Shown in pieces: positions 22,487 to 25,949 of a DNA stretch of 36,968 nt (position 1 is its first letter; each line of letters opens with the position of its first letter). The notes beneath the pieces are model-generated. The model ran no database searches. It saw only the letters and a list, made by a program, of their open reading frames with translations, and was not told where the DNA came from. A program made the position numbers and the translations under genes. The stretch is from a virus. Its lineage: Duplodnaviria; Heunggongvirae; Uroviricota; Caudoviricetes. The stretch spans positions 1-36,968 of the IMG/VR virus record IMGVR_UViG_2737471838_000003; one strand, written 5' to 3'.

Positions 22487-24742
22487 TTAGCGTATCTGGA
22501 TTCTTTCCTCATTACTTACTATTATATCATCACTTTCCCAACCTAATAAATCAAGTTCAGAAACGGCTTCAGAATAAATATCTTTATCCGCAGATAACGA
22601 ACGTAAAGTAATCAGCAATACAGCCCGCTGTGGAAACTCAAGTTTATCTTGCTCTGCTCTACGTTGCACATCTATTTTTAGTCTCCACGTATTCCCTTGT
22701 GTGCCTTGAGGGTACTTTTTCCTATACACTTTTATTGGTGACCATTTAAAACCATTCTCTATGAGATACTTCTCATATAATTCACTTTTATCCTTTACTT
22801 GAGGCACCTTGCTTATGTGTTTTCTTTTTTTTGTTTTATCAAAGTCGTATGTTCCAAAAGAAACATCTACATTAGATCGGCAATATTCTGAAGGGTAGTT
22901 CGGATCTAATGGCGGAGAGTAAACAAGAGTCATTAATATCTCTCCTGTAAATTTTCCCTCATCATTTTTTAAAGAATTAGGGATTACAAATGGATAGCGA
23001 CCAAACTCTTCACCTTCAAGAGTATTAACTTCAAAAAGAAATGTTATTTCATTTTTCTTACAAGATAACATATCTGAAATATTATCTTTTGGAATACCAA
23101 AACCATGATAATTTATTTCTTTTGGATCAATTTGATCCGTTCGCTCTAACATCGCTGAATGAATGATTAATGCTTTCACTCTTTCCGGTGATGGTGAAAT
23201 ATTGCTATTTAATTGCAGCTCATGCCATGTTGCAGCTGCAATACTTGAGATTAGTGGAGTGGAGAGGCTTGTACCAACAGATTCCGATAAGTGACCATTA
23301 TCTCCAATAGCAAATATTCCTAAATCAGAAAAATCAAGATTTGCCCTGCAGTTCCCACCAAAATGAGTAACTTCAGGTTTTGGAATACAGGAAGGCCCGG
23401 GGCCTCTTCTGGAAAAGGATGATGGTTGGTTTGCTTTTACAATGGAGTCGGCACAATCTACATGTGCAACAGATCCCACCGTCAAAGCTCGCACAGAATC
23501 CCCCGGAGCGGAAATACGATCACAATCTGATAGCTCCTGAGGCGGCCAAGTGCGTTGCGGTAAAGATTCGTAATTACCAGATGCAACAACAAAAAGGCAT
23601 CCATGTTCATCATGCAAATAACTCAACAAATGACCAAGTTCGGAAAAATTATCACTATGGCAGGCTTCTTTCTGTCCGAGAGATAGATTCCATATTTTTA
23701 CTTCAGGGAAATCCTCAACAGCTGTTGTAATTATATTCGCAAGTTCTGGTAGTGATAGTTCTGTATCCGCAGGAAACGCTGCAATATCAACCACCTCCGC
23801 ATGTGTATTAGGAAACCCTTCGTAGTTTCTATTTAACCCTTTACTATCAATGATTAAACTTGCCACCATATTGCCGTGAGTATAATCGGCCTTCCTTCCA
23901 TTAAGAAAGCTCCTTCTTCCCCATACCCATGGAGAGATATCCCTATTGTTTGGGTCAATACCACTATCTATTATCCCTACTAATGGATAATGTGCATCTA
24001 CATCAGGAATCGGTAATAATGCCTTTTTTTCGGCTGCTGTTTTTGATATTATTGCTTCACTATTATCCAGCTTAAAAGTGGGCATTGGCTGTAACTTCCT
24101 AACACCAATGAAATTTGATAATTCATAAATGTTGTTATTTTCAGGAACTTCAAAATAAAAAATATCATTTCCAATCGTGTGTTTATTTGGCTCAGGAATA
24201 TTTAACTCAGCCATCATTAATTTCAATGACTCTTCAAGGGATTTATTTTTCTTCCTATTCCTGTGATCAAATAATTTCAAGATATATGTTTTGGCCCCCT
24301 CATCTGCTATTCTGTCACAAATGAAGGGTTCGATTTTATCAATAACAGCAATATGGAGCGTACCATTTTTGGTTTTCGTGCTATTTTGTATTTTAGATTC
24401 AAGCCTAGAAAGGCCCTCTTCGGTTACACTTACTAATAATTCACCCAAATTACAACTACCAATTACGGGACAGGTTTTGTCTCCAAGCAAACTAGTAGGA
24501 CGATGTGATTTCGCTAAAGCTTTATCATGCAGAGTAACTTTTGCTACCGCAGGCACTCCCGGCCACTTTCGGAATGAGTCTCTAAAGTGTTCGGACACAC
24601 ATCTAACTTCATTTTTGAGCCTAGATAATAACTCTTTTGTTACTGGGCGAATGGGTTCCTTTTCAGTAAAACCGTAGGTTTTGTCATTAAAATCTTTTGC
24701 AAATGTCTTAATGATTTTTATGGGCCTTTCAACTTTGCTCAT
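22487..24742 (-). CDS. Subtilisin-like serine protease (peptidase S8), IetS-like
   Basis: 751 aa; catalytic residues in S8 order: Asp (LVGIIDSGID), His (YTHGNMVASL), Ser (GTSLSTPLISS); extra ~240-aa N-terminal and ~200-aa C-terminal regions; 37 nt downstream of the ATPase gene on the same strand. Confidence 0.85.
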   Translation of the reverse strand: MSKVERPIKIIKTFAKDFNDKTYGFTEKEPIRPVTKELLSRLKNEVRCVSEHFRDSFRKWPGVPAVAKVTLHDKALAKSHRPTSLLGDKTCPVIGSCNLGELLVSVTEEGLSRLESKIQNSTKTKNGTLHIAVIDKIEPFICDRIADEGAKTYILKLFDHRNRKKNKSLEESLKLMMAELNIPEPNKHTIGNDIFYFEVPENNNIYELSNFIGVRKLQPMPTFKLDNSEAIISKTAAEKKALLPIPDVDAHYPLVGIIDSGIDPNNRDISPWVWGRRSFLNGRKADYTHGNMVASLIIDSKGLNRNYEGFPNTHAEVVDIAAFPADTELSLPELANIITTAVEDFPEVKIWNLSLGQKEACHSDNFSELGHLLSYLHDEHGCLFVVASGNYESLPQRTWPPQELSDCDRISAPGDSVRALTVGSVAHVDCADSIVKANQPSSFSRRGPGPSCIPKPEVTHFGGNCRANLDFSDLGIFAIGDNGHLSESVGTSLSTPLISSIAAATWHELQLNSNISPSPERVKALIIHSAMLERTDQIDPKEINYHGFGIPKDNISDMLSCKKNEITFLFEVNTLEGEEFGRYPFVIPNSLKNDEGKFTGEILMTLVYSPPLDPNYPSEYCRSNVDVSFGTYDFDKTKKRKHISKVPQVKDKSELYEKYLIENGFKWSPIKVYRKKYPQGTQGNTWRLKIDVQRRAEQDKLEFPQRAVLLITLRSLSADKDIYSEAVSELDLLGWESDDIIVSNEERIQIR

Positions 24743-24779
24743 TCATTTTTCCTTTACAATTTTCCAGTTCTATTTTTAA

Positions 24780-25949
24780 CTAACCCACCTTTGTAGTATC
24801 TTGCCTTCTTGAGGATTTACTCTTAGACGTTAACCTAGATACCTTATTTGCTGAAATTGAAAGTAAACTAGCAATTTTTCTTACTGTAAATACTCTCTCA
24901 TCACAATTTCTAATTAATTTTGCTAATTTTTCTATTATTTGTTCTGGTTGATCAAACTTCTCTCCTTTAGATTCCCAAATAGACATCATAAGAAAAGTTG
25001 TATCAAATTTACCATTATTAAATAAAATAGAATGGCGAAGCGCACGCTCGCATATTTGTTCAATAAACGCACATGACAAGTCTTTTGAGAGAACAGCGGA
25101 GTCATATGCAACATCTAATGTTGGAAAATGCTGATTCAATAATCTTTCATATAGACGTTCTCTCACTTTTAAATCAGGTAAACCAATTTCGAGTCTGTAT
25201 GAAAATCTACGCCAAACCGCATTATCTAGTAAATTCTCGTGATTGCTGGCAGATATAAGTACAGTATGTTCAGGAAGATCATCAATGTTTTGTAACAATG
25301 CAACAACAACTCTTTTTAATTCACCCAATTCATGTTGATCATCTCTGGCTTTTGCCAAAGCATCAAGTTCGTCCAGAAATAGAACGCAAGGTTGATTGCT
25401 TGCATACTCAAAAAGAGTGCGTATATTTTTAGCTGTTGAACCTAAATATGACGATACCAACGCATCACACCGCGCAGTGAAAAGAGGTAATCTCAACTCA
25501 GATGCAATATGCTTAGCTGCAAGAGTTTTGCCACAACCTGGAGGACCAAAAAGTATCATTGAGGATGCAGCTTTTAATCCATATTTCTTCAGTTCATCTC
25601 TTCGTATTACTGATGTAATAAATTCATTAATTTTTTCATTAATCGAGTTATTCAAAATAGGTGGAGCTACGTTGATCTCAGGCTCTGTTTTATCTGCCAG
25701 ATGAAATTTTGTTTCATTATCAGTAGGAACTGAATATGCCTTTGTGGAGAGGCTATTTTGAGTAAAGTTTGCTTTCTGAAGCGAGAATGTAGTTTCCTGC
25801 TTCAAGAAGCTTCGTATTGTTTTCGCGAGTTCGCGCTCACCTTCCGCATCCATCTCTCTTGCAACTTTTGCTGCAATTCTCTGGAAGGTTATTTTATCGC
25901 CTATGACCCCTGACTTTATGAGGTCTACCAATAACTCGCCGTTGTTCAT
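24780..25949 (-). CDS. AAA+ ATPase, IetA-like
   Basis: 389 aa from MNNGELLVDLIKSG... (ATG at 25949); Walker A LFGPPGCGKT, Walker B VLFLDELD, second region of homology ...ISASNHENLLDNAVWRRF; AT-rich. Confidence 0.85.
   Translation of the reverse strand: MNNGELLVDLIKSGVIGDKITFQRIAAKVAREMDAEGERELAKTIRSFLKQETTFSLQKANFTQNSLSTKAYSVPTDNETKFHLADKTEPEINVAPPILNNSINEKINEFITSVIRRDELKKYGLKAASSMILFGPPGCGKTLAAKHIASELRLPLFTARCDALVSSYLGSTAKNIRTLFEYASNQPCVLFLDELDALAKARDDQHELGELKRVVVALLQNIDDLPEHTVLISASNHENLLDNAVWRRFSYRLEIGLPDLKVRERLYERLLNQHFPTLDVAYDSAVLSKDLSCAFIEQICERALRHSILFNNGKFDTTFLMMSIWESKGEKFDQPEQIIEKLAKLIRNCDERVFTVRKIASLLSISANKVSRLTSKSKSSRRQDTTKVG

Follow-up and report, generated by a model that had tools for sequence, protein, structure and literature searches.

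An IetAS-type ATPase-protease module and a convergent gene pair in the cargo slot of a Rac-type prophage of Escherichia coli

The window, by which we mean the whole 36,968-nucleotide stretch of viral DNA analyzed here, carries two minus-strand genes, ietA and ietS, that we regard as probably an intact IetAS system, i.e., a protease toxin with an AAA+ antitoxin that acts by abortive infection. The module is low-GC cargo of a defective Rac-type E. coli prophage, in the slot between its replication and nin genes. It is an ordinary member of the known IetA/IetS type, and the call itself contributes little, since standard defence finders would flag the locus and the system is already known in prophages. 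The new point concerns its surroundings: what moves is a block of four genes, in which a pair of genes for a 72-aa and a 254-aa protein accompanies every copy of the enterobacterial IetAS clade that we examined.

Results

The initial annotation had placed the two genes in the replication/nin cargo hotspot of a Rac-like prophage, and our analysis leads to the same location. Integration at ttcA and the genes intR/xisR, recE/recT, kilR, ralR/RalA and ydaS-ydaT-ydaV (from RefSeq, in the identical locus of E. coli ZYB62), together with a RalA sRNA match of 218 bits in Rfam, identify the host element as a Rac-type E. coli prophage. The element is defective: tail-fibre genes come straight after the terminase gene, and a stop codon lies within ralR. 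Homology to other Rac-type prophages stops at 20809-20814 and restarts at 26478-26485, which delimits a variable cargo slot (20815-26477) between the replication gene ydaV and hok/ninB. The slot contains a hok/gef-like gene, a four-gene cassette and a 440-bp degenerate stretch (26039-26477) that lies upstream of ietA and is followed by ydaV. Related prophages hold other cargo in this slot, namely beta-family plus sce7726 genes, or an ATPase with a cytosine methyltransferase. An Rfam search of the slot returned no Sok-type or other RNA, and the cassette is flanked by no direct or inverted repeats that would point to transposon- or integron-type mobilization.

The description of two co-oriented, closely spaced AT-rich genes was accurate, and we add their strand, which had been left unstated. 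ietA (24780-25949) and ietS (22487-24742) both lie on the minus strand, the ATPase gene directly upstream of the protease gene with a gap of 37 bp, and have a GC content of 0.364 and 0.375, respectively, versus 0.492 for the window minus the cargo slot. Both CDSs are annotated in the same way by RefSeq in ZYB62. The length of 389 aa for IetA is counted from the ATG at 25949, a start whose position is aligned in five diverged copies; an in-frame TTG upstream, at 26000, would give an alternative product of 406 aa.

The match to IetA/IetS proposed earlier holds over the full length of both proteins in PADLOC (IetA, PDLC02196, 2e-131, residues 2-378 of 389; IetS, PDLC02197, 1.2e-270, residues 1-745 of 751), and the AAA and S8 assignments were recovered in Pfam (PF00004, 1.9e-31, residues 131-256 of IetA; PF00082, 2.2e-27, residues 253-545 of IetS). 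The best NCBIfam families for the two proteins are IteA and IteS, though below threshold: the full-length alignments reach 389 bits for IteA_antiphage (NF042959, cut-off 510) and 796 bits for IteS_antiphage (NF042956, cut-off 900). As these scores fall under the equivalog cut-offs, we assign the proteins to a divergent enterobacterial subfamily, and for the same reason it goes unnamed in RefSeq, where the proteins appear only as "AAA family ATPase" and "S8 family peptidase". IetS is only ~41-43% identical to proteins that NCBI names IteS, and ~25-27% identical to relatives of the Rhizobiales-plasmid type, which includes the founding pTi systems; the latter align from about residue 214 onward only, and the N-terminal region is therefore not shared. 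Carrying function over from IetAS relatives to the enterobacterial subfamily is thus to be read as extrapolation. A megablast search with the cargo region as query gave no match among 50,697 phage records, and a protein search found only two distant phage-borne relatives of IetS (31% and 27% identity). No helicase ORF (ietH) is present in 20815-26477; an SNF2-type helicase gene in the operon is the criterion for IetHAS. The initial annotation had noted neither the distance to the Rhizobiales-plasmid type nor the four-gene unit that includes the pair at 21453-22438.

IetA comprises an N-terminal helical region (residues ~1-100), an AAA core (~105-310) and a C-terminal helix-turn-helix (HTH)-like segment. 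Its nearest sequence relatives in the PDB are the D2 domains of p97/Cdc48 (1e-49), and on sequence grounds it belongs to the classical clade of AAA+ ATPases. The AAA domain (aa 131-256; 25182-25559, minus strand), delimited by Pfam and the family alignment, contains Walker A (GPPGCGKT, G135-T142, with Lys141), Walker B (VLFLDELD, 189-196, with D193-E194), a pore-loop-1-like motif (S166-S-Y-L-G170), sensor-1 (N236) and an arginine pair (R247-R248). The S8 catalytic domain of IetS (aa 253-545; 23108-23986, minus strand), supported by Pfam, PDB relatives and the alignment, has its active site at D259 (IIDSG), H289 (HGN) and S492 (GTSLSTP), with N390 in the oxyanion hole. The Walker A/B motifs and the ordered Asp-His-Ser triad of the initial annotation are thus in place, and in the family alignments, of 54 and 59 sequences, both Walker motifs, the pore-loop-like motif and the arginine pair of IetA, as well as D259, H289, N390 and S492 of IetS, are invariant. 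The C-terminal segment of IetA (aa 354-373, FTVRKIASLLSISANKVSRL; 24831-24890, minus strand) is suggestive of an HTH, in that F354, T355, S366, K369 and S371 are near-invariant and the segment has many weak matches to HTH families and to the 55-aa HTH protein 2x48, although every match in the sequence searches was sub-threshold. Another IetA subtype has been annotated as AAA/HTH_50 (Rousset et al., PMC9122126).

A scan of the IetS sequence revealed neither a signal peptide nor a hydrophobic segment, which indicates a cytoplasmic protease. A PDB search returned generic subtilases and p97-like AAA domains only, and no structure of IetA or IetS. We describe the domain organization of IetS from an AlphaFold model (pLDDT 90.4, pTM 0.92), whose closest structural matches are the pro-forms of subtilases. 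Because of these matches, part of the N-terminal extension looks prodomain-like, with an I9-like beta-alpha-beta-beta-alpha-beta subdomain at ~aa 150-220 (24083-24295, minus strand) followed by a low-confidence linker (aa 227-233). At the other end, a beta-rich domain (~aa 565-740; 22523-23050, minus strand) forms a beta-sandwich in the model. The extensions had earlier been described as long and of unknown function, possibly sensors or effectors; the family alignment and the model agree that they are real, conserved and folded, whereas the prodomain-like part of the N-terminal extension is not obviously a novel sensor.

Upstream of ietA, a consensus scan found two overlapping sigma-70-like matches on the minus strand (25989-26053), TTGTGA-18-TACAAT at 26053-26024 and TTGAAA-16-(TG)CATTAT at 26016-25989; both are consensus matches only, and promoter-like sites are not enriched regionally. 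The motif GTNYCAY occurs three times on the same strand with a phasing of ~41-42 bp (26039-26033, within 26001-25993 and within 25959-25951), the third copy abutting the ietA ATG, against a background of 0.83 sites per kb per strand. These positions are kept in the window, in the Enterobacter cloacae locus L005 and in loci L011 and L022, with two copies in L007, despite protein identities of 55-81%, and we consider them candidate operator sites. A hairpin terminator (22463-22484, minus strand; 9-bp stem with 5 GC pairs, loop of 4, T-rich tail) starts 3 nt past the ietS stop, inside the 48-bp gap that separates the two convergent units. ietA and ietS are thus arranged like one transcription unit, preceded by promoter-like sites and closed by a strong terminator.

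These signals also bear on whether the two genes could be a decaying or silent remnant without present function in the host. The defects of the prophage, including the degenerate stretch at 26039-26477, would fit such decay, and H-NS might silence the low-GC cargo. Both ORFs are nevertheless full length with complete catalytic residues, and comparison with the Enterobacter copy gives a dN/dS of 0.072 (ietA) and 0.027 (ietS), which indicates that both intact genes are under strong purifying selection. Moreover, the cassette is 99.3-100% identical across three unrelated E. coli strains and retains its promoter and terminator signals, making a remnant very improbable.

On the opposite side of the terminator, two plus-strand genes converge on ietS. 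The first encodes a 72-aa soluble protein (21453-21671; phrog_37504, 1e-21) and the second a 254-aa membrane protein (21674-22438) with three transmembrane helices (1-19, 39-61 and 89-107), a helical stalk and a C terminus (164-240) predicted to be a small beta-barrel of the Sm/Hfq/WYL-like kind. Homologues of the 72-aa protein precede the transmembrane protein in ~86 of 95 loci, and the dN/dS of its gene is 0.031. Neither protein has a match in Pfam, NCBIfam or PADLOC. We also considered HEC-01B (PADLOC 2.0) for the pair and rejected it: among 59 members it appears in one only (E=0.008), PDC-M03B appears in another (0.0024), and neither match is family-wide.

Together the two units form a mobile cassette of four genes (21343-26039), ietA-ietS facing the genes for the 254-aa and 72-aa proteins, with both promoter regions included. 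Compared with L005, the cassette gives one collinear blastn block of 4.7 kb that is 77% identical, with nothing beyond, so that the DNA shared with Enterobacter ends right around the four genes. The same block occurs in the P2-like portal-gpA site, described as a defence hotspot by Rousset et al. (PMC9122126). Across the enterobacterial IetAS clade, the pair stands beside ietS in convergent orientation in all 22 loci examined, across six or more unrelated contexts (Rac-type lambdoid prophages, the P2-like hotspot, and islands in the chromosomes of Enterobacter, Pectobacterium, Scandinavium and Citrobacter), and all 15 complete E. coli genomes that carry the clade hold all four genes. Identities to L005, L007, L009 and L022 are 81, 58, 58 and 55% for IetA, 86, 73, 62 and 60% for IetS, 88, 70, 55 and 56% for the 254-aa protein, and 92, 65, 59 and 54% for the 72-aa protein. 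The four proteins co-diverge, and synonymous sites are saturated. A distant IetAS locus (L109, 34% identity) has a distantly homologous pair that is arranged in the same way, and there the 3' ends overlap. Genes that resemble the pair in size also lie 3' of a 49%-identity IetS (216 aa and 57 aa, L027-29) and of a 44%-identity IetS (L012); these are not homologous to it and were set aside.

It is conceivable, although we would sooner bet against it, that the cassette is the functional unit and that the convergent pair serves as an accessory sensor, regulator or membrane effector, as IetH does for IetHAS. The fixed position of the pair across unrelated contexts, its presence in every E. coli genome with the clade, the co-divergence of the four proteins, the limits of the Enterobacter block and the L109 locus all argue for such a unit, and there is a precedent for IetAS gaining an essential third gene (PMC13069673). 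On the other hand, the pair is mostly autonomous, 60 of 63 species-level genome loci being without IetAS (it stands alone in E. coli, Yersinia, Plesiomonas and Pseudoalteromonas), and 55 of 78 IetS loci are without the pair. The two units are convergent and not co-transcribed, and the repeated adjacency could reflect hitch-hiking, because both families occupy the same defence hotspots. Finally, the pair has been listed as a candidate system of its own: candidate #57 of the P2-like hotspot (Rousset et al., 2022, Table S5B), a ~250-aa transmembrane protein starting MFALLIIPLLVSGY and a ~75-aa protein with a VEVVGRGA motif, is the same two proteins as those encoded at 21453-22438. It was listed there as stand-alone and un-annotated, with 75 occurrences and no IetAS link noted, whereas the pair described here is tied to one IetAS clade, both physically and in its evolution.

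Discussion

The antiphage role that we favour for the enterobacterial locus is carried over from its relatives and is therefore worded conditionally. Proteases of the IetS type are toxic to E. coli cells, and ATPases of the IetA type neutralize them (PMC5006074); toxin and antitoxin roles were shown for SgiAT of SGI1 in the same study, which cites such roles for IetAS of pTiC58. Antiphage activity of IetAS members was measured by Gao et al. (2020), as cited in PMC13069673 and bioRxiv 10.1101/2022.08.27.505566, and the order given in the initial annotation, with plasmid stability described first and phage defence later, agrees with these three sources. Defence requires protease activity, and cloning of an ietA mutant did not succeed (PMC13069673). 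IetAS is described as acting by abortive infection, and for a Bacillus IetAS, expression of one phage protein triggers cell killing (bioRxiv 10.1101/2022.08.27.505566). The antiphage mechanism was described as unknown as of 2026 (PMC13069673).

In the uninfected cell, an IetA hexamer would use ATP to keep IetS inactive, possibly by holding or remodelling it, and the prodomain-like module could occlude the active site; through its HTH-like segment, IetA might in addition act as a repressor of its own promoter. A phage product or replication intermediate would then disturb IetA, or engage an accessory domain of IetS, and the released protease would cleave essential host or phage proteins, so that growth of the infected cell would stop ahead of phage release. 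How IetA restrains IetS, what the prodomain-like module does and how HTH and operator are linked are our proposals, and the model of IetS suggests a concrete, testable idea, that of a zymogen-like protease with a prodomain-like module, restrained by a threading-type AAA+ ATPase with an HTH-like tail.

The module might instead act mainly in addiction, stabilizing the prophage or island through post-segregational killing or exclusion of competitors, as first described for SgiAT and, as cited in PMC5006074, for pTiC58 IetAS. SgiAT is a functional toxin-antitoxin system in E. coli and stabilizes SGI1 in the presence of an IncA/C plasmid (PMC5006074), the cassette is always found on mobile elements, and the prophage has other genes of the toxin-antitoxin type (hok/gef, ralR/RalA and kilR). 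However, the carrier is a chromosomal prophage that is defective and already unlikely to be lost, its cargo site holds defence-type genes in related prophages, and members of the IetAS family have measured antiphage activity (bioRxiv 10.1101/2022.08.21.504612; Gao et al., 2020, through the citing papers). We consider a mainly stabilizing role unlikely, and note that the two roles are not mutually exclusive.

Alongside the preferred reading of ietAS as an abortive-infection module, the strict linkage to the membrane-protein pair suggests either a new multi-gene variant of IetAS or a stable defence block of two systems. Tentatively, and with the odds on the other side, the four-gene cassette may be the unit under selection, both in the enterobacterial lineage and, as an independent case, in one or more distant lineages (L109), with IetAS functionally coupled to the pair, whose membrane protein would have its Sm/WYL-like barrel in the cytoplasm. 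The pair could be a membrane-damaging second effector switched on by IetS, or a sensor or regulator that feeds into IetAS. E. coli ietAS is often prophage-borne, and ietAS of ECOR52 cloned alone gave limited protection only (bioRxiv 10.1101/2022.08.21.504612); given the strict linkage, tests in E. coli that cloned ietAS alone may have missed part of the biology. If the coupling is true, the cassette would be a new IetAS variant analogous to IetHAS and would offer a first handle on candidate #57.

Compared with known systems, the locus shares with the IetAS antiphage system (IetA/IetS in PADLOC, IteA/IteS in NCBIfam) an ATPase gene followed by that of a ~750-aa S8 protease, a full-length profile match that includes both protease extensions, identical catalytic motifs, and carriage by mobile elements and prophages. 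IetAS of pTiC58, as cited in PMC5006074, and SgiAT likewise combine a subtilase and an AAA-ATPase, with the ATPase gene first, on mobile elements; their carriers are a plasmid and SGI1, respectively, rather than a prophage. Pro-subtilases that keep the prodomain (Tk-SP, pro-subtilisin E, EpiP, PCSK9 and CspB/C) are secreted or compartmentalized, whereas IetS is without a signal peptide and has an additional N-terminal domain of ~130 aa and an AAA+ ATPase partner. IetHAS (Liu-DS4; PMC13069673) provides the precedent for an IetAS core with an extra gene that is now essential and affects toxicity. That gene encodes an SNF2 helicase in the same operon, while the neighbours here, a small protein and a membrane protein, are encoded on the opposite strand and are candidates for involvement. 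Other IetAS lineages that we examined are without the 72-aa/254-aa pair, except for the distant L109, whereas the enterobacterial clade described here is always flanked by it.

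The Locus Encodes an IetAS Module of a Divergent Enterobacterial Subfamily

Two adjoining AT-rich genes lie on the minus strand at 24780-25949 (ietA, 389 aa from its ATG) and 22487-24742 (ietS, 751 aa), 37 bp apart and with GC contents of 0.364 and 0.375, respectively, versus 0.492 for the window without its cargo slot. An identical locus is found in E. coli ZYB62, where RefSeq has the same two coding sequences as 'AAA family ATPase' and 'S8 family peptidase'. The initial annotation had read the genes as an AAA+ ATPase and a subtilisin-like protease with the architecture of the IetA/IetS pair, and was correct in both observation and interpretation. 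Pfam places an AAA domain in IetA (1.9e-31, residues 131-256) and Peptidase_S8 in IetS (2.2e-27, residues 253-545), and the PADLOC profiles match essentially the whole length of IetA (2e-131, residues 2-378) and IetS (1.2e-270, residues 1-745). In NCBIfam, the top matches are the IteA/IteS antiphage equivalogs; these too align end to end, with scores under the curated cut-offs (389 versus 510 bits for IteA, 796 versus 900 bits for IteS). The nearest of 595 IetS homologues are unnamed proteins of enterobacteria (Salmonella 97%, Enterobacter 86%, Serratia 84%, Rahnella 72%, Pectobacterium 61%), and NCBI-named IteS proteins share 41-43% identity with IetS. Judged by these profile, NCBIfam and homologue-identity results, the locus is a member of the IetAS family and belongs to a divergent enterobacterial subfamily. 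IetA and IetS each also match full-length PHROG families without assigned function.

An alignment of 54 sequences revealed that Walker A (G135-K141) and Walker B (D193-E194) of IetA are invariant, as are N236, the arginine pair in W246-R-R-F249, R305 and an S-S-[Y/F]-L-G segment (166-170) sitting where pore loop 1 of classical AAA+ unfoldases is found. The nearest solved sequences are p97/Cdc48 D2 domains (1e-49). The C-terminal 40 residues of IetA are conserved (FTxRxLAxxLxxSxxKVSxL) and gave many weak matches to HTH domains, none of them significant; a different IetA subtype is annotated AAA/HTH_50 (Rousset et al.). Neither IetA nor IetS has a hydrophobic segment, and both are therefore cytoplasmic.

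The long extensions of the protease had been described as being of unknown function. They are real conserved domains, part of which looks like a familiar subtilase accessory. Pro-forms of subtilases align over 300-397 residues of the predicted IetS model, compared with 235-250 for structures of the catalytic domain only. These alignment lengths and the beta-alpha-beta-beta-alpha-beta succession of aa 150-220 point to a putative prodomain-like module ahead of the catalytic domain. An additional domain of ~130 aa precedes this module.

The start of IetA at ATG 25949 is aligned with that of five diverged copies, in which a conserved TTTGTATCAC(A) abuts the ATG; this favours the 389-aa protein over a putative 406-aa extension from a TTG. 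ietA has two sigma-70-like matches upstream and ietS an AAGGA Shine-Dalgarno sequence in front of it, and a terminator with a 9-bp stem begins 3 nt past the ietS stop. Also upstream of ietA are three minus-strand GTNYCAY motifs (25951-26039), ~41-42 bp apart, the third of which directly adjoins the ATG. Cassette copies with proteins only 55-81% identical keep these motifs in the same places, and they may be candidate operator sites for the HTH-like tail of IetA.

The Module Occupies a Cargo Slot of a Rac-Type Prophage

The surrounding DNA is, as proposed, a Rac-type prophage; it lies at ttcA and has intR, xisR, recET, kilR, ydaS/T/V and the RalA antitoxin sRNA (35234-35412, minus strand, 218 bits). 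It also carries a minus-strand tRNA gene (17690-17762; tRNA-Arg per RefSeq). The prophage looks defective: the terminase large-subunit gene runs directly into tail-fibre genes (about 10770-13930 and 2800-10700), portal, capsid and tail-tube genes are absent from the annotation, and in the identical locus of RefSeq a stop codon breaks the ralR reading frame.

Placement of the module in the replication/nin cargo hotspot was likewise upheld: similarity to other Rac-type prophages ends at 20809-20814 and restarts at 26478-26485, and related prophages hold beta-family and sce7726 proteins, a 660-aa ATPase and cytosine methyltransferase, or hypothetical genes in the slot (20815-26477). Other E. coli strains carry the first two of these pairs in the same slot (L003, 2809-4444, and L004, 2708-5723, respectively), which thus behaves as a defence-type hotspot. 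Few E. coli strains have the island, with 3 carriers among 5,426 complete genomes, and one viral contig of IMG/VR contains an identical copy.

Between ydaV and the cassette, 440 bp (26039-26477) match neither prophage backbone nor cassette. With a G11/C11 homopolymer (26387-26397) and winged-helix-like ORF fragments across three frames, this stretch looks like a decayed gene in place of the DUF1627/DUF977 genes of related prophages. A Hok/Gef-family toxin gene (21110-21235, minus strand) lies inside the slot and outside the cassette; it shares only ~86% identity over 200 bp with other E. coli copies, and an Rfam search of the slot found no Sok-type antisense RNA.

A Small-Gene Pair Accompanies This IetAS Clade

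Directly downstream of ietS and convergent with it, at a distance of 48 bp, two plus-strand genes encode a soluble 72-aa protein (21453-21671) and a 254-aa protein (21674-22438). The larger protein combines three TM helices with a helical stalk and an Sm/WYL-like C-terminal barrel, and matches no Pfam or PADLOC family. The module forms a small family of 117 clusters, every one annotated 'hypothetical', that is found in prophage cargo hotspots across Proteobacteria and is absent from PADLOC 2.0.

The pair is linked to this IetAS clade: the same pair, confirmed as homologous, stands in the same layout behind ietS in every clade copy examined (Enterobacter, Rahnella, Pectobacterium, Scandinavium and Citrobacter islands and the E. 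coli P2-like portal-gpA hotspot). The DNA block common to the window and Enterobacter is exactly 21343-26039, each of the 15 complete E. coli genomes that carry the clade possesses the full set of four genes, and the four co-diverge under strong purifying selection. A second lineage has the same four-gene layout (L109, IMGVR_UViG_2937525446_000001, 4874-9261): its IetS is 34% identical and its distant homologous pair (294 aa and 69 aa, 3' ends overlapping by 26 bp) is again convergent. Against functional coupling, the pair is mostly autonomous, IetAS being absent at 60 of 63 species-level loci; it stands by itself at the ends of prophages, within a P2/186-like hotspot of Yersinia and in a lambdoid prophage of Plesiomonas. 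Moreover, 55 of 78 IetS loci lack it, and Rousset et al. (2022) list it separately as P2-hotspot candidate #57 (75 occurrences). Weighing both sides, we regard functional coupling as rather doubtful and keep it as a rival reading, separate from the main conclusion.

In Pseudoalteromonas sp. CR1 (L021, 2463-6801), a solitary pair lies beside a different ATPase/protease combination, in which the ATPase is a 670-aa double-AAA protein and the serine protease is of the SDH/ClpP type. The same island also encodes an HD protein and an MmeI-type restriction enzyme. The adjacency may be accidental, or the pair may have a second ATPase-protease partner here.

Proposed Mechanism and Comparison with Known Systems

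In the homologous SgiAT pair of SGI1, the protease is toxic in E. coli and the ATPase neutralises it; together they stabilise the island (PMC5006074). For a Bacillus cereus IetAS, the mode of action is abortive infection; expression of the SPbeta gene yosG makes it toxic, and escape mutations fall in replication proteins (bioRxiv 10.1101/2022.08.27.505566). IetAS was reported in 2026 to need protease activity, and an ietA mutant resisted cloning; the variant IetHAS recruits an essential SNF2 helicase, and the antiphage mechanism of IetAS was described as still open (PMC13069673). Prophages often carry E. coli ietAS, and the ECOR52 system alone protected to a limited extent (bioRxiv 10.1101/2022.08.21.504612).

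We propose that an ATP-driven IetA hexamer would hold a zymogen-like IetS inactive, perhaps autoregulating through its HTH at the GTNYCAY repeats; a phage cue would break IetA control, and IetS proteolysis would then arrest the cell. The locus offers a concrete structural hypothesis for IetAS and shows a strict linkage of this clade to an uncharacterised membrane-protein pair.

For IetAS here, both the type of system and the type of site are already known, and standard tools would call it automatically; the locus is a new, as yet unnamed subfamily member and not a new system. Its IetS shares just 25-27% identity with relatives on Rhizobiales plasmids, the group to which the founding pTi systems belong, and the alignment to these starts at about residue 214.
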